Virus record (IMG/VR): IMGVR_UViG_2718217884_000001
Span: 1-37,524 of that record
Length of the DNA stretch: 37,524 nucleotides
DNA from: a virus
Lineage: Duplodnaviria; Heunggongvirae; Uroviricota; Caudoviricetes
Reading direction: 5' to 3' (one strand)
Shown here: positions 23,621-37,524 of the stretch, in pieces
Numbering within the stretch: the stretch's first letter is position 1
Layout: every line of letters starts with the position of its first letter
Position numbers and translations under genes: made by a program
Notes under the pieces: generated by a model
The model's database searches: none
What the model was told of the DNA's origin: nothing
Seen by the model: only the letters and a program-made list of their open reading frames with translations

Positions 23621-24218
23621 CCTGTTGCCGCCGGGTTCGTCGCCGCTTGAGCGCCGACTGGCGCAGACCTGCAGCGGGATTTCCGATCTGCAGGTATCGC
23701 TGCGTGATTTGTGGAATCCGTCAATCTGCCCGGTCAGATTCCTGCCTTATCTGGCCTGGGCGTTTTCTGTTGACCGCTGGGATGAGAGCTGGACAGAAAG
23801 CGTCAAGCGCCGCGTTGTGCAGGACGCTTTTTATATCCATCAGCACAAGGGGACAACCAGCGCCGTGCGGCGCGTGGTGGAGCCGTTCGGCTTTCTGATC
23901 CGCATCATTGAGTGGTGGCAGACTGGCGAAATACCAGGGACGTTCCGTCTGGATATTGGCGTGCAGGACCAGGGCATAACAGAAGAAACCTATCTGGAGC
24001 TGGAGCGCCTGATCGGTGACGCCAAACCGTGCAGCCGTCACCTGGTTGGTATGTCCATCAACCTGCAGACAGGTGGCCCGTATTTTGTGGGCGCAGCCAC
24101 CTACACCGGCGAAGAAATCACGATCTACCCGTATATCAACGAAACCATTATTTCCGGCGGCACCGCTTATGAGGGCGGGGCGGTCCATGTTATTGACACG
24201 ATGAGAGTGAACCCATGA
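23613..24218 (+). CDS. I: Baseplate/tail protein I (P2 gpI)
   Basis: ATG 23613 overlapping J stop. Confidence 0.8.
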   Translation: MNSLLPPGSSPLERRLAQTCSGISDLQVSLRDLWNPSICPVRFLPYLAWAFSVDRWDESWTESVKRRVVQDAFYIHQHKGTTSAVRRVVEPFGFLIRIIEWWQTGEIPGTFRLDIGVQDQGITEETYLELERLIGDAKPCSRHLVGMSINLQTGGPYFVGAATYTGEEITIYPYINETIISGGTAYEGGAVHVIDTMRVNP

Positions 24219-25203
24219 GCGCAAAATTTTACACCCTGCTGACGGATATCGGCGCGGCGAAACTGGTAAGCGCCGCCGCGCTCGGTGTCCCACTAAAAAT
24301 TACCCATATGGCGGTGGGCAGCGGTGGTGGTATGCTGCCCACACCCAACGCGCAACAGACCGCGTTAGTGGCTGAGGAACGCCGCGCAGCGCTGAATATG
24401 CTGTATATCGACCCACAGAACAGCAGCCAGATTATTGCTGAGCAGGTGATCCCGGAAAATGAGGGCGGGTGGTGGATTCGTGAAGTCGGCCTGTTTGATG
24501 AAACAGGTGCGCTAATTGCTGTGGGAAACTGCCCGGAGAGCTACAAGCCGAAGCTGGCGGAGGGCAGCGGACGCACGCAGACCGTGCGAATGGTACTGAT
24601 TACCAGCAGCACGGATAACATCACCCTGAAAATTGACCCCGCTGTGGTTCTGGCAACCCGCAAATATGTGGATGATAAGGTGCTGGAACTTAAGGTGTAT
24701 GTGGATGACCTGATGGCAAAGCATCTTGCTGCGGTTGATCCTCATTCGCAATATGCACCAAAAGACAGTCCGACTCTGACAGGCATGCCTAAAACGCCAA
24801 CGCCACCGGCAGGAAACAACAGCACCCTGATTGCCAGTACAGCCTTTGTACAGGCCGCTATTCTTGCCCTGATAGGTGGCGCACCGGCAATGCTGGATAC
24901 GCTGAAAGAAATTGCGGCAGCTATCAATAATGACCCGAATTTCAGTACCACCATTAACAATGCGCTGGCACTGAAAGCACCACTGGCAAGCCCAGCCCTG
25001 ACCGGAACGCCAACGGCTCCGACTGCGGCGCAGACTGTGAACAATACGCAGATTGCCACTACAGCATTTGTGAAGGCAGCTATTGCCGGGCTGGTTGGTT
25101 CATCGCCGGAGGCGCTGGACACACTGAATGAACTGGCAGCTGCGCTGGGGAATGATCCTAACTTTGCGACAACAGTGATGAACGCGCTGGCGGGGAAACA
25201 GCC

Positions 25204-26542
25204 CATAAGCGCTAACTTAAGGGTTGAACCATCTGAAGAATGCGACGCCTCGGTGCCTCGTTAAGACGATGCCTCGCGTTCTTCAATTGCGTTTTGTAGG
25301 CTGTCAGGGATACTGTCCCACGAATGGCCACCTGTAAGCTCCAGATGACCATTTTTGTTATTCTCCACAACGAGTTAGTTCTTCTTTTCGGATCCGGCAC
25401 TTCTGGGGGGGAAATCCAGCGATGGCTGGATTATGTCGTCAATTAAAAATGCGGCGAGTAGATTAGCAAATATCCACGCTTTCGCGAGTTCAGGTTCCTT
25501 TGCACGCAAAGCATCCAGGTGCAGCAAACTTTTGAGCCGCTTAAAAGCCAGTTCAATTTGCCATCGCAGACGGTAACAATCAGCCACTTGCTCTGCTGAA
25601 TATTCATCTTCCGGTAATGATGTTAGCAATAGCACATGGCCCGCTGCTTCCAGCGTTTCCGCCTGAACTACTCGTCCTTTTCGACGATTCTCGCTGAGCA
25701 GTCGGGTTTTACTGATTAATGCTTTTTCGGGAGGAAGTGATACGGCAATGAGACGTGCCGGAAAGGGAGCTCCGGCTTTTTTATTACCTGAATTGCCTAT
25801 CATTACAGTGGTTTCACCGTTCTTACCGCAATCCAGCCCGCGCAGAAAACCCATCATGTCAAAGCGCATTCCTTCTGCAGTTAACCAGCGCAATCCTCGC
25901 CAGTGAACCCGGACGATATAATCAGCTTCTCCAAAAGCAAGTGAGCGGATACATTCGGGACGCGAACCGAATCCCCGGTCAGCAATGCGTATCTCGTCTG
26001 CCGTTTGCGCAAATCGGTCCAGCCGTTCAGCGTCTCTGCTGTCGGTTAGCTCAAAATCAGTGAACTGACAGGTATGAGGATCATATCCCATATGTAGTCG
26101 CCATTCAGCGCTGCCGCCCCCGGGCGCACTGATTGCTGTTCCATCGACAAGACGCAATCTCTTTCCGCTTGTACAACCCGTAACTGCGGCGCGTACAGCA
26201 AGTGTTTGTGCGGCAAGTATGCCAAACCAGTCGGCGGCATTCCGCAGCCGCTTCAGGAGAGCCACGTCAGATAATGTTGCAACGTCATGGAGCTGAGCCC
26301 ATGCAGTGACTTCACGTAATGACATCCCCCCGGGGCCGTAAGCCAGCCCCAGACGTAGCAGAGTTGCAGCATCACGAATTTCGCGGCGGCGGGTTAGAGC
26401 CCCGGCATTACGTGCCGAAGTATCCAGTTCTTCGGGCTTACCAATATGGGCCAGAATTGCTGACCAGTTATCGTGAGAGTAATTCATCGGCACGTTAAAT
26501 CATATCAGGCGTAATACCACAACCCTTAAGTTAGCGCTTATG
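25204..26542 (-). mobile_element. IS186 (IS4 family) insertion
   Basis: Inverted repeats CATAAGCGCTAACTTAAGGGTTG / CAACCCTTAAGTTAGCGCTTATG; direct repeat GGAAACAGCC at 25194..25203 and 26543..26552. Confidence 0.88.
25375..26493 (-). CDS. IS186 transposase (DDE, YREK motif)
   Basis: 372 aa; ...CYRLRWQIELAFKRLKSLL contains the IS4-family Y-R-E-K signature. Confidence 0.88.
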   Translation of the reverse strand: MPMNYSHDNWSAILAHIGKPEELDTSARNAGALTRRREIRDAATLLRLGLAYGPGGMSLREVTAWAQLHDVATLSDVALLKRLRNAADWFGILAAQTLAVRAAVTGCTSGKRLRLVDGTAISAPGGGSAEWRLHMGYDPHTCQFTDFELTDSRDAERLDRFAQTADEIRIADRGFGSRPECIRSLAFGEADYIVRVHWRGLRWLTAEGMRFDMMGFLRGLDCGKNGETTVMIGNSGNKKAGAPFPARLIAVSLPPEKALISKTRLLSENRRKGRVVQAETLEAAGHVLLLTSLPEDEYSAEQVADCYRLRWQIELAFKRLKSLLHLDALRAKEPELAKAWIFANLLAAFLIDDIIQPSLDFPPRSAGSEKKN

Positions 26543-26590
26543 GGAAACAGCCCCTCGATGCCACTTTGACTAACCTCAGCGGGAAAAGTG

Positions 26591-26616
26591 TTTCAGCCCT
26601 TCTACAATACCTTGGT
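26591..26616. promoter_or_regulatory. Hin/Gin-type recombination site (left crossover site of invertible tail-fibre segment)
   Basis: TTCTACAATACCTTGGTTTGGGAGAA; 12-bp half-sites around a central TT, resembles hix/gix; located in H at the constant/variable junction. Confidence 0.65.
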
Positions 26617-27083
26617 TTGGGAGAAGGCTCAGCGTTACCCGTTGGTGTACCTGTTCCGTGGTCTTCAGCCACTCCTCCAACAGGCTGGCTGAAATGCAAT
26701 GGTGCGCCTTTTTCTGCCGAAGAGTATCCGGAACTGGCAAAAGTTTATCCGACAAATGAATTGCCAGATTTACGTGGTGAGTTTATTCGTGGCTGGGATG
26801 ACGGGCGCGGTATTGACGCGGGGCGCGAAATTCTGTCTGCTCAGGGTGACGCCATTCGAAATATCGTTGGGCATATCTCATGCGTGCGTCGTGGGCCTGA
26901 AGGTTCAGACCGTGCCGATGGCGCGTTTAGATACGATAGCAACTGGTCTACAAAAATTAGATCGACTGATTTAGCAGACGACTGGGGGAGCGTAGTCTCA
27001 TTTGATGCCAGTCGCGTAGTTCCAACTGCACCAGAAAACCGTCCACGCAGTATCGCATTTAACTTCATCGTGAGGGCCGCATA

Positions 27084-27686
27084 ATGACACAGGCAAAATT
27101 AAACAGTGAATTTATTGCCACAGTAGCGGGTGATATGACCGTCTATAACTATGACAACACGACACGGGAATACATTTCATCATCAACAGAATATCTTGCC
27201 GTTGGCGTCGGTATCCCGGCATGTTCTTGTTTAGATGCACCAGTTACACATAAAGCTGGTTATGCAATCTGCCGTTCTGCAGATTTTAACTCATGGGAAT
27301 ATGTGCCAGACCATCGCGGTGAAATCATCTATAGCACCGAAACAGGAGAATCGAAAGAAATCACAGCTCTGGGTGATTACCCTGAAAATACAACCACTAT
27401 CGCCCCGTTAACGCCATATGATAAATGGGATGGTGAGAAATGGGTGACGGATACCGAGGCACAGCACGGCGCAGCAGTAGATGCAGCAGAAGCACAGCGC
27501 CAGTCGCTGATTGATACTGCAATGGCCTCCATCAGTCTGATTCAGCTGAAATTGCAGGCCGGACGTAAACTGACGCAGGCAGAAACAACCCGCCTTAACG
27601 CTGTGCTGGATTACATTGACGCGGTGACGGCAACAGATACCAGCACCGCGCCGGATGTCATCTGGCCTGAACTGCCGGAGGCGTAG
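27084..27686 (+). CDS. G: Tail fibre assembly chaperone (P2 gpG-like)
   Basis: 200 aa; C-terminal ...DYIDAVTATDTSTAPDVIWPELP typical of Tfa proteins. Confidence 0.8.
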   Translation: MTQAKLNSEFIATVAGDMTVYNYDNTTREYISSSTEYLAVGVGIPACSCLDAPVTHKAGYAICRSADFNSWEYVPDHRGEIIYSTETGESKEITALGDYPENTTTIAPLTPYDKWDGEKWVTDTEAQHGAAVDAAEAQRQSLIDTAMASISLIQLKLQAGRKLTQAETTRLNAVLDYIDAVTATDTSTAPDVIWPELPEA

Positions 27687-28110
27687 GCCATTCAATATCT
27701 GGCGCACCGGAAGTATCGACCAGCTCCAGTGCGTCCAGATAATCCAGCCACAAATTATATTGCGCCAGTTCATCATCTTTCAGACGACCAATAGCGGCTT
27801 TACCGGGCCATTGCTTACTGTTCATGTATTCGTTGGCCTGGTTAATTAGTAGCTGTCTTTCTGATTCAGTAATTTCAATAAGCTCTTCATGCGTGGGTGG
27901 AGGAATATCTGCCCACGCAGGCAGCCCATCATTTCCGGCAATACGGATTTTTCCTTGTGGCGGTTCAGCCATAAACTCACTGATAATATTTTGATTCACT
28001 TCCTTAGCATCTGATAAATCCCATCCCTCTGATTTATATTTATCAATCATATCCACAGGGAAAAAAGCATTATGCCTTGCGCTATAAACATATTCGTTCA
28101 TATAAATCAC
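27658..28110 (-). CDS. Alternative tail fibre assembly chaperone (inverted orientation)
   Basis: 150 aa; C-terminal ...DYLDALELVDTSGAPDIEWP parallels gpG; convergent with G. Confidence 0.75.
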   Translation of the reverse strand: MIYMNEYVYSARHNAFFPVDMIDKYKSEGWDLSDAKEVNQNIISEFMAEPPQGKIRIAGNDGLPAWADIPPPTHEELIEITESERQLLINQANEYMNSKQWPGKAAIGRLKDDELAQYNLWLDYLDALELVDTSGAPDIEWPTPPAVQAR

Positions 28111-28121
28111 CCTGAATAAAA

Positions 28122-28481
28122 TTACTCACCAACAGCCCACCAACTGTAATTCATCGATACAGTGTTGCTGGTTGATGACGTTCTGTAAGCAGAATTAAAG
28201 CCGGTTAACGTTGGGTCTTCTGCAGTCATCATGAACCCTCGCCCAGCGCCTAAAGGCGCACCGCCATCACCAGAATGAGTAAGCATGGCGCAGTCCGCTT
28301 TTTTGGGGAAAGGGATGCTGAATGTAATTCTCATTGTTTGCGTCGATAATGTCGGCGTAACCGCACCACGACCATATTGCAGGATTTTCCCGTTGGGTAA
28401 TTTCATCCATCCATCACCACTGGCAAAAGAGGCCATGTCCGGTATCTGATTTTCCCCTGTCCCCACATCCCGTTTTGCCGC
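28122..28481 (-). CDS. Alternative tail fibre C-terminal segment (promoterless; fused to H after inversion)
   Basis: Open frame continues from the right crossover site; after inversion would read ...YLGLGE-AAKRDVGTGENQ... in frame with H. Confidence 0.65.
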   Translation of the reverse strand, partial: AAKRDVGTGENQIPDMASFASGDGWMKLPNGKILQYGRGAVTPTLSTQTMRITFSIPFPKKADCAMLTHSGDGGAPLGAGRGFMMTAEDPTLTGFNSAYRTSSTSNTVSMNYSWWAVGE

Positions 28482-28507
28482 TTCTCCCAAACCAACATTT
28501 AGCCAAA
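28482..28507. promoter_or_regulatory. Hin/Gin-type recombination site (right crossover site)
   Basis: TTCTCCCAAACCAACATTTAGCCAAA; first 14 nt identical to reverse complement of left site inner half-site plus core. Confidence 0.65.
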
Positions 28508-28592
28508 GCCAGTATTGAATCAGTTACGTAGCAAATGATTCCAGCATCTGAAAATCATGGCATGCTGTTTACCTTTTAAGAGGTTATTTTTC

Positions 28593-29150
28593 ATGCAAAT
28601 AGGCTATGTGAGGGTGTCAACAAATGACCAGAACACTGCTTTGCAACGTGATGCACTGGAACGCTCAGGATGTGAGCTAATTTTTGAAGACAAAATGAGC
28701 GGAAAAACAGCAGACAGACCAGGGCTAAAAAGGTTGCTCAGGACGTTATCAGAGGGAGACACGCTGGTTGTATGGAAGCTCGACAGGCTGGGAAGAAGCA
28801 TGCGACACCTTGTTACCCTGATAGAAGAACTCCGGCAGCGCGGAGTTAATTTCCGTAGTCTGACTGACAGCATAGACACCAGTACACCAATGGGGCGGTT
28901 TTTCTTTCACGTTATGGGGGCACTGGCGGAGATGGAACGCGAGTTGATAGTGGAACGAACCCGTGCGGGACTGGAAGCCGCAAGAGCTAAAGGCAGGATT
29001 GGAGGGCGAAGACCAAAACTGACGCCAGAGCAATGGGCACAGGCTGGCAGGTTACTTGCTGCAGGTGAAACACGGCAGCGGGTTGCTTTAATTTTTGATG
29101 TGGGGATCTCGACGTTATACCGCAAATATCCTGCGACATTGTGTGATTAA
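28593..29150 (+). CDS. Serine DNA invertase (Hin/Gin/Pin/Cin family)
   Basis: MQIGYVRVSTNDQN...GDTLVVWKLDRLGRS...MGRFFFHVMGALAEMERELIVERT matches the resolvase/invertase catalytic domain; C-terminal HTH. Confidence 0.9.
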   Translation: MQIGYVRVSTNDQNTALQRDALERSGCELIFEDKMSGKTADRPGLKRLLRTLSEGDTLVVWKLDRLGRSMRHLVTLIEELRQRGVNFRSLTDSIDTSTPMGRFFFHVMGALAEMERELIVERTRAGLEAARAKGRIGGRRPKLTPEQWAQAGRLLAAGETRQRVALIFDVGISTLYRKYPATLCD

Positions 29151-29233: not shown

Positions 29234-30406
29234 ATGGCTCAGGATTACCACCACGGGGTGCGCGTTGTTGAAGTCAACGAGGGCACCCGATCTATCACCA
29301 CGGTGAGCACCGCTATCGTGGGCATGGTCTGCACCGGCGATGATGCTGATGCGTCCGTGTTTCCTCTCAATAAGCCGGTTCTGCTGACGGATGTGCTGGA
29401 GGCCAGCGGTAAAGCAGGCGAGTCCGGCACGCTGGCCCGTTCGCTTGATGCGATTGCCGACCAATCAAAACCCGTGACGGTTGTTGTGCGCGTGGCGCAG
29501 GGCGAAACCGAAGCGGAAACCACCTCCAATATTATCGGTGGCGTCACGTCCGACGGTAAAAAAACGGGGATGAAAGCGCTGCTTTCTGCGCAGTCGCAGC
29601 TGAAAGTTAAGCCGCGCATTCTCGGTGTGCCGGGGCATGACACGCAGGCGGTAGCCACTGAGCTGATGAGTATTGCGCAGAGCCTGCGCGGGTTTGCCTA
29701 CCTGTCTGCCTATGGCTGCAAGACGGTGGAGGAAGCCATTGCTTACCGGGACAATTTCAGCCAGCGAGAAGGGATGCTGATCTGGCCTGATTTCATCAAC
29801 TTTGACACCGTTCTTAAAGCCGATGCGACGGCTTACGCCTCCGCACGTGCGCTCGGTCTGCGCGCCAAAATCGACGAACAGACCGGATGGCACAAAACCC
29901 TGTCCAACGTGGGTGTGAATGGCGTCACCGGTCTTTCCGCTGATGTGTTCTGGGATCTGCAGGACCCGGCAACAGACGCGGGACTGCTGAACCAGAATGA
30001 CGTCACCACGCTGATCTGCAAAGACGGCTTCCGCTTCTGGGGTTCCCGCTGCCTCAGTGACGATCCATTGTTTGCGTTTGAGAACTACACCCGTACGGCG
30101 CAGGTGCTGGCTGACACGATTGCAGAGGGGCATATGTGGGCGGTGGATAAGCCACTGAATCCGTCACTGGCCCGCGACATTATCGAAGGTATTCGCGCCA
30201 AATTACGCAGCCTGGTAAATCAGGGATACCTCATCGGGGCGGACTGCTGGCTGGATGAGTCAGTGAACGATAAAGACTCTCTGAAAGCCGGGAAGCTCAC
30301 CATCGACTACGACTACACGCCTGTGCCGCCGCTTGAAAATCTGATGCTGCGCCAGCGCATCACCGATCGCTACCTGGTCGATTTTGCCAGCCGTGTCAGT
30401 GCATAA
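29234..30406 (+). CDS. FI: Tail sheath protein (P2 gpFI)
   Basis: 390 aa, position and size. Confidence 0.88.
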
Positions 30407-30416
30407 GGGGGGATAC

Positions 30417-30932
30417 ATGGCATTACCACGCAAGTTAAAACACCTGAATCTGTTCAACGACGGGAACAACTGGCAGGGGATCGTTGAGTCCCTGACTCTG
30501 CCGAAATTCACCCGCAAGTTTGAGAAGTATCGCGGCGGCGGTATGCCGGGCGCGGTAGATGTGGATATGGGGCTGGATGACGGCGCACTCGACACGGAAT
30601 TTTCAATCGGCGGCACCGAACTGTTGTTATTCAAGCAGATGGGCAAGGCAACCGTTGATGGCATCCAGCTGCGTTTCACCGGCTCTATTCAGCGTGACGA
30701 TACCGGCGAAGTTCAGGCCATTGAGCTGGTTGTGCGGGGGCGTCATAAAGAAGTGGATTCCGGCGAGTGGAAAACCGGCGAGAGCAGCACCACCAAAGTC
30801 AGCAGCACCAACAGCTACGCGAAGCTGACCATTAACGGCGAAGTGCTCTATGAGGTTGATCTGGTCAACATGATTGAAATCGTTGACGGCGCGGACCTGA
30901 TGGAAGCACACCGTAACGCCCTTGGCCTCTGA
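30417..30932 (+). CDS. FII: Tail tube protein (P2 gpFII)
   Basis: ATG 30417; 171 aa. Confidence 0.88.
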   Translation: MALPRKLKHLNLFNDGNNWQGIVESLTLPKFTRKFEKYRGGGMPGAVDVDMGLDDGALDTEFSIGGTELLLFKQMGKATVDGIQLRFTGSIQRDDTGEVQAIELVVRGRHKEVDSGEWKTGESSTTKVSSTNSYAKLTINGEVLYEVDLVNMIEIVDGADLMEAHRNALGL

Positions 30933-30986: not shown

Positions 30987-31289
30987 ATGAGCGACAAGCT
31001 GACTGAAAAAACCGTACAACTGGATACGCCCATCATGCGCGGTAAAACCCAAATCACCGAAATTGTGCTGCGTAAGCCGCAGTCCGGTGCGCTGCGCGGC
31101 ACCCGCCTGCAGGCCATTATGGATATGGACGTGGGGGCCATGATGACAGTGATCCCGCGTATTTCCACCCCAACGCTGACCGCACAGGAAATGGCTGAAC
31201 TGGACCCCGCCGATCTCACCGCGCTGTCGGTCGAGGTGGTGACTTTTTTGTTGAAGAAGTCGGTGCTTGCCGGTTTACCGACAGCCTGA
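30987..31289 (+). CDS. E: Tail assembly chaperone E (P2 gpE)
   Basis: 100 aa; contains slippery TTTTTTG near 3' end. Confidence 0.8.
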   Translation: MSDKLTEKTVQLDTPIMRGKTQITEIVLRKPQSGALRGTRLQAIMDMDVGAMMTVIPRISTPTLTAQEMAELDPADLTALSVEVVTFLLKKSVLAGLPTA

Positions 31290-31423
31290 CGATTGATGAC
31301 CTGGTGGCGGATATCGCCACCATCTTTCACTGGTCGCCGTCCATCACTGACGTTATGCCGCTGACAGAGGTGCTGGAGTGGCGGCATAAAGCGATTCAGA
31401 GAAGCGGGGCCAGCGATGAGTGA
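30987..31423 (+). CDS. E+E' frameshift-extended tail chaperone (programmed -1 frameshift at 31244..31250)
   Basis: Slippery heptamer T TTT TTG; -1 frame is open to TGA at 31421..31423, overlapping T start. Confidence 0.6.
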
Positions 31424-34400
31424 CAATAACCTGCGTCTGCAGGTGATTCTGAATGCGGTTGACAAGCTCACCCGCCCATTTCGATCCGCGCAGACCAGCT
31501 CAAAAGAGCTGGCTGCCGCCATTCAGCAAAGCCGCGCCCGGCTGAAAGAGTTAGATTCTCAGGCGGGCAGAATTGATGGCTTCCGTAAGGCCAGCGCGCA
31601 GCTAGCAGTCACAGGTAACAGCCTTAAAGCCGCCCGCGAAGAAGCGGCAAAACTCGCCACGCAGTTTACTGCGACCAACCGCCCGACGGCAGCTCAGGCC
31701 AGGCTGCTTGAGCAGGCTAAAAATCGCGTCACCGATTTACAGGGAAAATATAACGGGCTGCGTCAGTCAGTGCAGCGTCAGCGCCTTGCGCTGAATGAGG
31801 CAGGGCTTGATACAAAGAAACTGAGCAGCGCACAGCGTGAGCTACGGCAGAACGCCGATGAAACCCGACTGGCACTGGAGCGACAGCAAAAATCTCTGAA
31901 ACACCTGGGTGAACAGCAGGCGAGAATGAATGCGGTTCGTGATCAGTATTCGCGCCGTCTTGAGGTTCGGGATCGCATAGCCGGAGCCGGAGCCACCACT
32001 ACAGCTGCCGGGCTGGCAATGGGTGCGCCGGTTTTGGCTGCAGTGAAAAGCTACGCCAGCATGGAAGATGCCATGAAAGGCGTGGCAAAGCAGGTAAACG
32101 GGTTGCGGGACGATAACGGCAACCGTACAAAACAGTTTTATGACATGCAGGATGCCATTAAGGCTGCCAGTGAGCAGCTGCCGATGGAGAATGGCGCTAT
32201 AGATTATGCCGCGCTGGTTGAAGGGGGCGCGCGTATGGGCGTGACCAGCCAGGACGATCTCTTTGAGGACCAGAAACGTGACCTGCTGGCCTTTGCATCC
32301 ACGGCGGCAAAAGCTGCAACGGCCTTTGAGCTGCCCGCCGATGAGCTGGCGGAAGGATTGGGGAAAATCGCGCAGCTCTATAAAGTGCCGACGCGCAATA
32401 TTGAACAACTGGGCGATGCGCTGAACTACCTGGACGATAACGCCATGTCAAAGGGCGGGGACATTATCAACGTCCTGCAGCGTATGGGGGGCGTGGCTGA
32501 CCGCCTTGACTTCCGAAAAGCTGCTGCGCTGGGTTCAACATTCCTTTCTCTTGGGGCTGCCCCGGAAATTGCCGCCAGCGCCTCTAATGCCATGGTGCGT
32601 GAACTGTCCATTGCCACCATGCAAAGTAAGCGCTTCTTTGAAGGTATGAATCTGCTGAAACTCAATCCTGCGGAGATTGAAAAGCAGATGACCACCGATG
32701 CCATGGGCACCATTCAGCGGGTTCTGGAGAAGGTCAACAATCTGCCGCAGGATAAACGCCTGTCAGCCATGACAATGATTTTTGGTAAAGAGTTTGGCGA
32801 TGATGCGGCAAAGCTGGCTAACAACCTGCCGGAGCTGCAGCGTCAGCTGAAACTCACATCAGGCAGTGGTGCGAATGGCTCGATGCAGAAAGAATCCGAC
32901 ATTAACAAGGATTCATTGTCTGCGCAGTGGTTGCTGGTTAAGACTGGCGCGCAGAACGCTTTCAGCAGTCTGGGGGAAACGTTGCGCCAGCCGCTGATGG
33001 ATATTATGGGCATGGTTAAGGGTGTGACCGGGGCGCTGCGTCGCTGGGTGGAGCAGAATCCCGTGCTGGCTGGCACGCTGATGAAAGTGGCGGCGGCTAC
33101 GGCGGCTGTCACTGTCGGGCTGGGTACACTTGCCGTGGCAGTGGCTGCTGTGCTGGGGCCGATTGCGGTGATTCGGTTTGGCCTGTCTGTGCTGGGTGTA
33201 AAAACATTACCTTCCGTTGCTGCAGCGGTAACACGTACTGGCGGTGCCCTGTCATGGCTGGCAGGTGCGCCACTTTCCCTGTTGCGTCGGGGTATGGCGT
33301 CATCCGGTGGCAGTGTAGGGTTACTGAGTGCCCCGCTTAATTCCCTGCGTCGCTCAGCCGGAATAGCGGGTAATGCACTGAAAACGGTGGCAGGTGCTCC
33401 GCTTGCCGTGTTCCGTGTCGGTATGTCAGGCATCCGTAATGTTATCGGTATGGTGATGAACCCGCTGGCGGCGTTGCGTGGTGGGCTGACAGCTGCCGGT
33501 GGCGTATTGCGTTTTCTTGTTTCTGGTCCGCTGGCATTACTTCGCGGCGCGCTGTTTGGTATTTCCGGCCTGCTGGGTGCGCTGCTCAGTCCGATAGGGC
33601 TGGTTGTGGCTGCGCTGGCTGGTGTGGCGCTGGTTGTGTGGAAATACTGGCAGCCCATCAGTGCATTTCTGGGGGGCGTGGTGGAAGGGTTCAAAGCCGC
33701 TGCAGCGCCAATTAGCGCCGCCTTTGAGCCGCTCAGGCCCATGTTCCAGTGGATTGGTGACAGGGTGCAGGCCTTGTGGGGCTGGTTCAGCGATTTACTT
33801 TCGCCGGTTAAATCCACTTCCGAAGAACTGAACAGCGCAGCTGCAATGGGGCGCCGGTTTGGTGAGGCGCTGGCGGAAGGTCTGACTATGGTGATGCACC
33901 CGCTGGAGTCTCTTAAATCCGGTGTGTCATGGCTACTGGAAAAGCTCGGTATTGTCAGTAAGGAGGCGGCAAAGGCGAAACTGCCTGCACAGGTCACGCA
34001 GCAGCAATCCGCCACGGTGAACAGTGACGGCAAAGTGGTGCTGCCGCCAGGCGGGTTCCCGGCTTACGCAGGGATGTACGACACGGGCGGGATCATTCCA
34101 CGCGGGCAGTTTGGCATTGTTGGAGAAAATGGCCCTGAAATTGTGAACGGACCGGCAAATGTCACCAGCAGGCGGCGTACTGCTGCGCTTGCCTCTGTCG
34201 TTGCAGGCGTTATGGGGGTTGCTGCGACACCTGCAGAAGCGGTTCCGCTTCATCCGTTCAGTCTGCCTGCGAGTGCATACCAGACGCAGCCAGTGAAGGC
34301 TGACAGCCCGCCGTCAGTTATTCGTTATGAGATAAATGCGCCCATTCATATCGTCGCGCAGCCGGGACAGAGTGCGCAGGATATTGCCCGTGAAGTGGCA

Positions 34401-34481
34401 CGTCAGCTTGACGAGCGGGAACGCAGGGCCAGGGCAAAAGCGCGCAGCAATTTCAGCGATCAGGGGGGGTATGAATCATGA
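31416..34481 (+). CDS. T: Tail tape measure protein (P2 gpT)
   Basis: 1021 aa, coiled-coil N-terminus, Gly/Ala-rich hydrophobic middle with degenerate repeats. Confidence 0.9.
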   Translation: MSDNNLRLQVILNAVDKLTRPFRSAQTSSKELAAAIQQSRARLKELDSQAGRIDGFRKASAQLAVTGNSLKAAREEAAKLATQFTATNRPTAAQARLLEQAKNRVTDLQGKYNGLRQSVQRQRLALNEAGLDTKKLSSAQRELRQNADETRLALERQQKSLKHLGEQQARMNAVRDQYSRRLEVRDRIAGAGATTTAAGLAMGAPVLAAVKSYASMEDAMKGVAKQVNGLRDDNGNRTKQFYDMQDAIKAASEQLPMENGAIDYAALVEGGARMGVTSQDDLFEDQKRDLLAFASTAAKAATAFELPADELAEGLGKIAQLYKVPTRNIEQLGDALNYLDDNAMSKGGDIINVLQRMGGVADRLDFRKAAALGSTFLSLGAAPEIAASASNAMVRELSIATMQSKRFFEGMNLLKLNPAEIEKQMTTDAMGTIQRVLEKVNNLPQDKRLSAMTMIFGKEFGDDAAKLANNLPELQRQLKLTSGSGANGSMQKESDINKDSLSAQWLLVKTGAQNAFSSLGETLRQPLMDIMGMVKGVTGALRRWVEQNPVLAGTLMKVAAATAAVTVGLGTLAVAVAAVLGPIAVIRFGLSVLGVKTLPSVAAAVTRTGGALSWLAGAPLSLLRRGMASSGGSVGLLSAPLNSLRRSAGIAGNALKTVAGAPLAVFRVGMSGIRNVIGMVMNPLAALRGGLTAAGGVLRFLVSGPLALLRGALFGISGLLGALLSPIGLVVAALAGVALVVWKYWQPISAFLGGVVEGFKAAAAPISAAFEPLRPMFQWIGDRVQALWGWFSDLLSPVKSTSEELNSAAAMGRRFGEALAEGLTMVMHPLESLKSGVSWLLEKLGIVSKEAAKAKLPAQVTQQQSATVNSDGKVVLPPGGFPAYAGMYDTGGIIPRGQFGIVGENGPEIVNGPANVTSRRRTAALASVVAGVMGVAATPAEAVPLHPFSLPASAYQTQPVKADSPPSVIRYEINAPIHIVAQPGQSAQDIAREVARQLDERERRARAKARSNFSDQGGYES

Positions 34482-36060: not shown

Positions 36061-36128
36061 TCGGTTCTCAATACTGAATAATGATGTATCATTATTGCGA
36101 CTACGGCAAGAGTGGTGGGATAACAGCG

Positions 36129-36347
36129 ATGATGAACTGTCCAGAGTGCGGTCATGCAGCACATACCAGAAGCAGTTTTCAGGTATCAGCTACGACAAAA
36201 GAACGTTACAACCAGTGCCAAAATATAAATTGTGGCTGTACGTTCGTTACTCATGAAACGTTTGTACGGCACATTATAAAACCGAATCTAATTTCTTCTG
36301 CGCCGCCACATCCTGGAAAAGGTGGTCAAGGCCACATGAGTTTCTGA
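36129..36347 (+). CDS. ogr: Late gene transcriptional activator (Ogr/Delta/186 B zinc-finger family)
   Basis: MMNCPECGHAAHTRSS...KERYNQCQNINCGCTF: CxxC-N22-CxxxxC zinc finger as in P2 Ogr. Confidence 0.85.
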   Translation: MMNCPECGHAAHTRSSFQVSATTKERYNQCQNINCGCTFVTHETFVRHIIKPNLISSAPPHPGKGGQGHMSF

Positions 36348-36462: not shown

Positions 36463-36509
36463 TTTGGTGGAGCTGGCGGGAGTTGAACCCGCGTCCGAAA
36501 TTCCTACAT
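36463..36509 (-). repeat. attR core: 47-bp direct repeat (within intact ssrA 3' end)
   Basis: Identical to 2294..2340. Confidence 0.9.
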
Positions 36510-36827
36510 CCTCGGTACTACATGCTTAGTCAGTCTTTACATTCGCTTGCCAGCTGCGGACGGACACGCCACTAACAAACTAGCCTGATTAAGTTTTAAC
36601 GCTTCAACCCCAGGCAGGGCTTCCACGCGATCTCTTTTGGGTTTGACCTCTCTTGATCCCCGTCCTAAGAGCGGAGGCTAGGGAGAGAGGGCTCTAAGCA
36701 GGTTATTAAGCTGCTAAAGCGTAGTTTTCGTCGTTTGCGACTATTTTTTGCGGCTTTTTACGAGGCCAACCGCCCCTCGGCATGCACCTTGGGTTTCGCA
36801 AATCCCGTCGAATCCAGAATCAGCCCC
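36465..36827 (-). ncRNA. ssrA: tmRNA (SsrA), intact
   Basis: Reverse complement begins GGGGCTGATTCTGGATTCGACGGG and ends GGTTCAACTCCCGCCAGCTCCACCA; tag region GCAAACGACGAAAACTACGCTTTAGCAGCTTAA (ANDENYALAA) present. Confidence 0.95.
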
Positions 36828-37041: not shown

Positions 37042-37524
37042 TTAACGGTGGGCGTTTTTCATGATACGCGCTTTATCCACCTGCCATTCGCGCTCTTTGA
37101 TATCTGAACGTTTATCGTGCTGTTTCTTACCTTTGGCGACGCCGATTTTCACTTTGCACCAGGCATTTTTCCAGTACAGGGAGAGCGCCACTACGGTATA
37201 GCCTTCTCGATTGACGCGACCGTACAATGAGTCCAGTTCGCGCTGGTTGAGAAGTAACTTGCGGGTACGGGTAGGATCGCACACCACATGCGTGGAGGCC
37301 ACTGCCATTGGCGTGATGTTTGCGCCAAACAGGAACGCTTCTCCGTCACGCAGAAGGACATAGCTGTCGCTGATATTGGCTTTTCCTGCGCGCAGGGATT
37401 TAACTTCCCAGCCTTGCAGGGCAAGTCCCGCTTCGAACTCTTCTTCGATAAAGTATTCGTGACGGGCGCGCTTGTTAAGCGCGATGGTCGCTGAACCAGG
37501 TTTATGTGCTTTTTTCTTCGTCAT
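37042..37524 (-). CDS. smpB: SsrA-binding protein SmpB
   Basis: 160-aa translation [56 protein letters not shown]...; start codon at window edge. Confidence 0.95.

Follow-up and report, generated by a model that had tools for sequence, protein, structure and literature searches.

The window, a stretch of 37,524 nt, contains the late region, with the tail genes, of a P2/Fels-2-type prophage and carries FI, FII, gpE, T, gpU and gpD in an order with which P2 and Fels-2 agree. The tape measure gene and the other genes placed by coordinate are as follows.

29234..30406, FI sheath, in the late (tail) region
30384..30932, FII tube, after the FI sheath
30987..31289, gpE-type chaperone (Phage_TAC_7), directly upstream of T
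31416..34481, plus strand, tape measure gene T, an ORF of 1021 aa with PF10145 and phrog_28 matches
36081..36347, Ogr-sized ORF, 3' of the tail genes
36465..36827, minus strand, tmRNA gene
37042..37524, minus strand, ORF

T is the tail tape measure protein, as given by its family profiles and its position between the chaperone and gpU/gpD. PF10145 (PhageMin_Tail) matches aa 246-457 (E=2.2e-17; 64 bits, the cutoff being 33.2), and the phrog_28 family, annotated 'tail length tape measure protein', is hit with E=1.8e-209. In nucleotide sequence the window T is 91% identical to its counterparts in Fels-2 and in Yersinia phage vB_YpM_MLG42. This T type is found in 15 of 5,426 complete E. coli genomes, and the array region described below is 99.9% identical in a few E. 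coli chromosomes.

The middle of T contains a degenerate tandem array of six half-units, arranged pairwise into three super-units.

33240..33626, plus strand, whole array, six half-units forming three 43-aa super-units (T aa 609-737), defined by autocorrelation, super-unit scores and Fourier analysis
33240..33368, plus strand, super-unit S1 (aa 609-651), GGALSWLAGAPLSLLRRGMASS followed by GGSVGLLSAPLNSLRRSAGIA, from in-register comparison
33369..33497, plus strand, super-unit S2 (aa 652-694), GNALKTVAGAPLAVFRVGMSGI followed by RNVIGMVMNPLAALRGGLTAA, from in-register comparison
33498..33626, plus strand, super-unit S3 (aa 695-737), GGVLRFLVSGPLALLRGALFGI followed by SGLLGALLSPIGLVVAALAGV, from in-register comparison and kept in Fels-2

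Each super-unit is composed of a 22-mer and then a 21-mer, with the half-unit consensus G-G-x-L-x-x-L-x-G-A-P-L-x-x-L-R-x-G-x-x-x-x. The original prediction had described five P-L-x-x-L-R-x-G strings in T, and all five are found within 33250-33560, far above chance, with their motif prolines at aa 619, 640, 662, 683 and 705 (nt 33270-33528). Its unit of about 13 aa does not hold: the period is 21-22 aa, with proline spacings of 21, 22, 21, 22, 21 and 21, and the 11-13-aa strings represent only the conserved core. Its five motif copies are correct, and it missed a sixth, degenerate unit, SPIGLVVAALAGV with P726, which extends the array past 33560 to its end at 33626. The last half-unit of S3, SGLLGALLSPIGLVVAALAGV, is degenerate and transmembrane-like.

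BLOSUM62 autocorrelation over T aa 600-780 peaks at lags 43 (z=8.2), 64 (z=5.6) and 21 (z=5.1), with minor peaks at lags 7, 11, 14, 18, 25, 29 and 32, so that the strongest period is 43 aa, the sum of one 22-mer and one 21-mer. Compared ungapped and in register, S1 and S2 are identical at 17 of 43 positions (40%, z=6.6), while S1/S3 and S2/S3 score z=4.8 and z=5.6, respectively; none of 2000 shuffles equals any observed super-unit pair score, and the 43-aa blocks adjoining the array on both sides show no match to the super-units. A half-unit HMM gives the five good units 19-34 bits, and shuffled proteins score 3.5 bits at most. The array is a statistically solid repeat, and it is evolutionarily active.

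The tail-fibre protein H also contains a repeat, of two copies.

24770..24979, plus strand, H repeat copy 1 (H aa 186-255), from autocorrelation at lag 74 aa (z=12.8)
24992..25201, plus strand, H repeat copy 2 (H aa 260-329), from the same lag (z=12.8), ending at an insertion-sequence junction

The internal periodicity predicted for both proteins is therefore significant by autocorrelation (T z=8.2, H z=12.8). In H, two copies of about 47 aa had been proposed; the repeat is real, its actual unit being ~70 aa and its period 74 aa. The two intervals 24836..24978 and 25058..25200 share 30 of 48 residues by manual count. Pfam matches H only at its N-terminal domain (PF12571), and the insertion sequence splits H at the end of repeat copy 2.

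The array is cationic. Its 129 residues include ten K/R, no D/E, one W and three F, and are rich in L, G, A and S, with L (20%), G (19%) and A (16%) together contributing 55%. Strict GxxxG occurs only twice (aa 631 and 711), alongside several small-xxx-small-xxx-small strings. The hydropathy profile confirms the predicted location in the hydrophobic middle of T and, at a Kyte-Doolittle 19-residue mean of at least 1.6, delineates two transmembrane-like segments.

33088..33203, plus strand, upstream transmembrane-like segment (~aa 558-596), Kyte-Doolittle at least 1.6 at centres 567-587, maximum 2.25
33546..33650, plus strand, downstream transmembrane-like segment (~aa 711-745), Kyte-Doolittle at least 1.6 at centres 714-716 and 720-736, maximum 2.55

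The downstream segment extends over the final one and a half half-units. In units 1-5 the Kyte-Doolittle mean is 0.50-1.43, below 1.6, with two R/K per unit, and the transmembrane threshold is passed only by unit 6 and the flanks. Fourier analysis of hydrophobicity over the entire array gives a single sharp peak at 100 degrees, corresponding to 3.6 residues per turn (z=13.4, against 7.4 for the 99th percentile of shuffle maxima). One amphipathic α-helical phase is preserved across all six units because 21.5 aa equal six turns and 43 aa equal twelve.

Single-sequence AlphaFold2 modelling of aa 569-785 yields an all-helical structure in which aa 638-770 form one helix (model mean pLDDT 68, ~85 over aa 700-760; pTM 0.25). 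The full-length T model, built from a 27-sequence alignment of sequences at least 89% identical, has a mean pLDDT of 38, is uninformative on the array (~25-30 there), and is confident only in the N-terminal coiled coil (~aa 20-175). A continuous helix running through the prolines and Gly-Gly pairs is accordingly a predicted rather than an established feature of the array.

At the DNA level the units have drifted far apart. Tandem Repeats Finder detects no array with a period of 63-129, the sole long direct repeat in the array DNA is a 52-nt pair with 73% identity lying 129 nt apart, and the array lacks the high-identity head-to-tail DNA copies that a slippage-prone tandem repeat would need. 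This divergence (at most 73% identity, with nothing reported by Tandem Repeats Finder) points to old duplications. The original prediction held that the repeats are prone to slippage and length variation, and that their number should be compared across related prophages. Repeat number does vary, with 22, 43 or 86 aa absent in relatives; classical slippage on near-identical DNA does not account for it, since the copies are too diverged.

T has roughly 3,300 homologues, and the variation was surveyed in the 120 closest 90%-identity clusters. Exactly 43 aa are missing at T position 616 in eight of them, 22 aa at position 639 in P0081 (seen on 45 contigs) and 22 aa at position 691 in P0044. Fels-2 gpT (935 aa, 95% identical over the aligned part) lacks exactly aa 609-694, that is S1 and S2 (86 aa), and SopEPhi, SEN8 and RE2010 have the same 2808-nt T gene as Fels-2, with the 86 aa absent. 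All of these 22-, 22-, 43- and 86-aa gaps fall within the array, in frame and in register, and the proteins bearing them are 90-99% identical elsewhere, none with a compensating insertion. One cluster (P0086) is missing 8 aa at T position 651, out of phase. Larger length differences elsewhere come either from starts that were called differently or from an unrelated insertion at the C-terminal end.

Three of the deletions were mapped at base level, and their junctions lie at 4-10-nt microhomologies encoding the conserved residues A-G-A-P-L, A-P-L and G-L.

33259..33268, plus strand, left copy of the microhomology TGGCAGGTGC, left edge of a natural 129-nt deletion (L009, P0063, 978 aa)
33388..33397, plus strand, right copy of TGGCAGGTGC, partner copy for the 129-nt deletion (L009)
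33399-33404, CCGCTT, right junction of one natural 66-nt deletion (L010 = P0081)

The two TGGCAGGTGC copies are joined by the 129-nt deletion, two CCGCTT motifs (Pro-Leu codons) by one 66-nt deletion and two GCTG motifs by the other. The protein lacking 43 aa is otherwise 99% identical to the window T, while the identity between S1 and S2 is only 40%; the variants are therefore recent deletions from a six-unit form and do not reflect recent duplications in the window. The window T represents the commonest, long form and not a slipped variant. A scan of one genome per species found five motif units at 13 loci (Citrobacter, Enterobacter and Escherichia spp.) and a single motif unit at eight (Kluyvera, Citrobacter pasteurii, Silvania and a Klebsiella plasmid). 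IMG/VR contains 417 relatives; the 80 best-scoring loci kept from a scan of it all carry the full-length array, a selection by score that gives no copy-number distribution. Fels-2, which has the short form, is a viable phage. MLG42, which has the long form, was isolated as a plaque-forming phage (PMC11126057).

Only one part of the tblastn query (T aa 536-860) aligns with P2 gpT, at query residues 208-316.

33642..33968, plus strand, conserved KYWxPxxxFxGG...SWLLEKLG segment (aa 743-851), about half of its residues identical in P2 T (tblastn, ~50%)

P2 gpT (815 aa) occupies the same gene position and shares the PF10145 core and the KYWxP...EKLG segment with T; the array is absent from it, the half-unit HMM finds no match, and uncharged hydrophobic segments stand at the array position. 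Fels-2 gpT, with the same gene position and PF10145 core, keeps one PLxxLR unit and the degenerate unit. The HMM likewise finds no match in the SEN4 and Persinger tape measures. When solved structures were searched by sequence with T, the sole match was a weak one to 8kea_G ('tmp', E=0.023), around the KYWxP segment.

The slot is bounded by conserved LGP-x-x-x-R-F/L-x-L and SP-x-G...KYWxP segments, and other lineages fill it with different periodic inserts. In the Gilliamella tape measure P0253 (1106 aa, 33% identical), the slot prolines are spaced 22, 21, 22, 18 and 22, and the units, of a lysine type, take the form G-x-T-L-x-x-F-x-R-S-P-I-K-S-L-x-x-G; this array, detected only through autocorrelation and by eye, has 21 K/R, no D/E and a Fourier z of 15.0. 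The Pantoea tape measure P0174 contains four 18-aa units, SGGFSGL-x4-RG-x5, of five turns each (Fourier z=9.3), and in further proteins of the Pantoea type two or three units come after an acidic insert.

We interpret the array as probably a phase-preserving helical spacer that changes the length of the tape measure and, by inference, of the tail. It would constitute a modular spacer in the hydrophobic centre of a tape measure of the P2/Fels-2 family, with units of whole helical turns: half-units alternating between 22 and 21 residues average 21.5, or six turns, and the 43-aa super-unit completes twelve. Six units would then build ~129 residues of helix with a continuous hydrophobic face and an arginine-bearing face, flanked on both sides by the transmembrane-like segments. 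The array probably arose through old duplications of a single basal unit, as found in relatives such as Fels-2, Pantoea and Silvania, and whole units are lost, in in-phase steps of 22, 43 or 86 aa, by deletions between the short microhomologies that the conserved motif codons create.

An α-helix rises 1.5 Å per residue, from which we calculate ~19 nm for the array, ~3.2 nm for a half-unit and ~13 nm for the Fels-2 gap. Gain or loss of a half-unit would thus alter the tape measure by ~3.2 nm and, we infer, the tail with it, and the helix face presumed to pack against partner chains, chaperone or membrane would not be rotated by the change. This spacer reading matches experiments on TP901-1, in which deletions within the repeats and within a hydrophobic region gave proportionately shorter tails and keeping the helical periodicity was more important than the identity of the side chains (PMC5099701). 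The out-of-phase 8-aa deletion in P0086 is a point against the phase model.

The only electron microscopy figures for a long-form phage, those of MLG42 (head 128 nm, tail 234 nm), are unusable, a 128-nm head for a 31-kb genome indicating a scale problem; 186-type phages, for comparison with MLG42, have a 71-nm head and a 156-nm tail. The literature search returned no tail length for Fels-2. Rings of the tail tube rise ~4 nm each. A correspondence of one unit to one tube ring was considered by calculation and set aside, as 3.2 nm gives no integer match to this rise.

Other roles for the repeated units can be weighed against the spacer. After sheath contraction, the flanks of expelled T, together with the arginine-bearing amphipathic units, could insert in or lie on the inner membrane and form a DNA conduit, with copy number tuning the pore or its span. 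The position of the array between two transmembrane-like segments and its composition (ten K/R, no D/E, G/A/S-rich) are in keeping with such a module, as are several precedents: tape measures commonly have predicted transmembrane segments, density of T4 gp29 has been assigned to a membrane conduit (bioRxiv 10.64898/2026.03.06.709160), and glycine-zipper transmembrane motifs have been noted towards the C terminus of Burkholderia tape measures (PMC10240207, which also cites a link between the HK97 tape measure and the inner membrane). However, units 1-5 are only moderately hydrophobic (0.5-1.4, below 1.6) with two arginines each, strict GxxxG is limited to two occurrences, Fels-2 does without four of the five motif units, and 22-aa deletions would flip the topology if every unit were a membrane span. 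We therefore regard a membrane-insertion or channel module as doubtful as the principal function, while a membrane-contact role is plausible and can coexist with a spacer. A related arrangement, in which each 43-aa super-unit folds as a membrane helical hairpin, was rejected as the main reading on account of the one continuous helix in the single-sequence model, the sub-transmembrane hydropathy and the 22-aa deletions.

The units might instead be repeated sites at which the tail assembly chaperone (gpE and gpE+E') docks, one per unit, and so coats the hydrophobic stretch of T during assembly. The gpE-type gene directly upstream of T would suit this, and chaperone binding has been connected with the hydrophobic stretches and the periodic motifs of tape measures (PMC5099701). 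The upstream gpE-type gene is nevertheless 100 aa long in relatives with one motif unit and in those with five alike, giving no visible link between chaperone size and unit number, and we consider docking improbable. That an L/G/A-rich, low-complexity region generated the motifs by chance is the least credible explanation: composition-preserving shuffles never match the observed scores, the half-unit HMM separates real units from shuffled proteins (19-34 bits against 3.5 at most), and the natural indels are exact multiples of the unit. The shuffle controls exclude chance. The phase-preserving spacer remains our preferred reading of the array.

Extended to the family, this reading suggests that the slot between the transmembrane-like segments of P2-family tape measures might be a general length-tuning cassette, filled independently in different lineages by different integral-turn arrays (arginine-type units of 21.5 aa in T, lysine-type units of 22/21 aa in Gilliamella, 18-aa units in Pantoea) and shifting contractile-tail length stepwise. 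We put this forward tentatively, as possible but still on the less likely side. If true, it would go against the view, drawn from surveys, that tandem repeats are not used in myovirus tape measures; a 2026 survey found them typically without detectable ones (PMC13585406). Degenerate arrays like that of T escape repeat surveys that rely on standard detectors.

Regarding known systems, the array resembles the predicted transmembrane or glycine-zipper segments of tape measures such as T4 gp29: it too is a helical stretch, hydrophobic and rich in glycine, lying mid-protein or towards the C terminus and thought to meet the membrane during DNA delivery. It differs in that its repeated units fall below the hydropathy threshold and carry arginines, only the flanks appearing transmembrane. 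Another parallel lies with siphophage tape measures, which contain 11/18-aa aromatic-marked tandem repeats (Belcaid et al. 2011, PMC3271669; TP901-1, Mahony et al. 2016, PMC5099701). Like those repeats, the units of T are degenerate, reside in the tape measure, comprise whole helical turns (11 aa making three and 18 aa five in the siphophage units, 21.5 aa making six here), vary in copy number and are proposed to tune length. The period is distinct, 21-22/43 instead of 11/18, with lags 11 and 18 reaching only z=2.6 and 3.1 in T as helical harmonics. Whereas the siphophage units are marked by Trp/Phe at a fixed position, those of T are marked by Pro, Leu, Arg and Gly, and the array is cationic, free of acidic residues, placed between transmembrane-like segments and borne by a contractile-tailed P2-family phage. 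We found no description of this unit, chemistry, location and host-phage type in the literature searched. The array is nonetheless an ordinary expandable length module that belongs to the known phenomenon of tape-measure repeats and is no new kind of element. Such repeats are an accepted route for tail-length change, described mainly for siphophages with 11/18-aa aromatic repeats, and T offers a clean natural series in a contractile-tailed family, with 1, 4, 5 or 6 half-units in proteins that are 90-99% identical elsewhere.

The N-terminal 190 residues of the tape measure protein T are predicted by AlphaFold2 to form three long helices (aa 3-86, 92-128, and 133-191; window 31416..31990, aa 1-191), with a pLDDT of ~80-90 across roughly aa 30-170. 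This N-terminal region is the sole confidently modelled part of T.

The tail-fibre gene H is cut in two (24215..25264 and 26566..27084) by an insertion sequence, which we take to resemble IS186. The prophage can probably not make an intact fibre. The adjoining region, 27084..29150, looks like an invertible tail-fibre segment, judged by its layout of a forward gene, an opposite-facing alternative set, and an invertase. At the right end of the window, a tmRNA gene follows an Ogr-sized ORF and precedes a minus-strand ORF that is presumably smpB; the prophage appears to be integrated within ssrA or adjoining it.

Features of the tail-fibre region and the right end of the window
25202..26544: insertion sequence, 1343 bp; its terminal inverted repeats are 25 nt long and match perfectly (CCCATAAGCGCTAACTTAAGGGTTG)
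25375..26493, minus strand: DDE transposase ORF of the insertion sequence (PF01609)
27084..27686, forward: fibre-assembly gene, beside the serine invertase
27658..28110, minus strand: Caudo_TAP gene, part of the opposite-facing alternative set
28122..28490, minus strand: fibre C-terminus (Gp53-like_C), part of the same alternative set
28557..29150: serine invertase (Resolvase and HTH_7)
36081..36347: Ogr-sized ORF
36465..36827, minus strand: tmRNA gene, tag ANDENYALAA
37042..37524, minus strand: ORF after the tmRNA gene

The match H85 (NZ_CP135595.1, E. coli GDSC2227PM) covers window 33266..33900; its T match starts within the first repeat unit, and the underlying annotation names a phage portal protein next to the tape measure, which together suggest a rearranged or truncated prophage. 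Two annotation oddities were also observed: the 1021-aa T homologue of Yersinia phage vB_YpM_MLG42 (PP599993.1; L002 1501..4566) is annotated 'tail fiber assembly protein', and the record of Klebsiella phage KP12 'clone KP12_3' (OM835953.1; L004), although classified under Vequintavirinae, contains T, U, and D genes of the P2 type, with T split into two ORFs.

Elsewhere in the family, certain 1147-aa tape measures from Enterobacter and Citrobacter, among them a cluster of 2119 member sequences, hold three tandem ~47-aa copies of the NGPANVT-x-R-x-RTA-x-LA-x-VAA segment, located at residues ~918-1050 of the homologue P0113 (loci L017, L018, and L022). T of the window has a single copy (aa ~911-945; nt ~34146..34250). 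The triplication is a second repeat expansion in the tape measure family, independent of the array in the slot between the two transmembrane-like segments. At the homologous slot, two distant tape measures possess periodic arrays of their own, composed of 22/21-aa lysine-rich units in P0253 (Gilliamella sp., aa 575-715) and of 18-aa SGGFSGL units in P0174 (Pantoea, aa 575-670), both with a sharp 3.6-residue hydrophobic periodicity.
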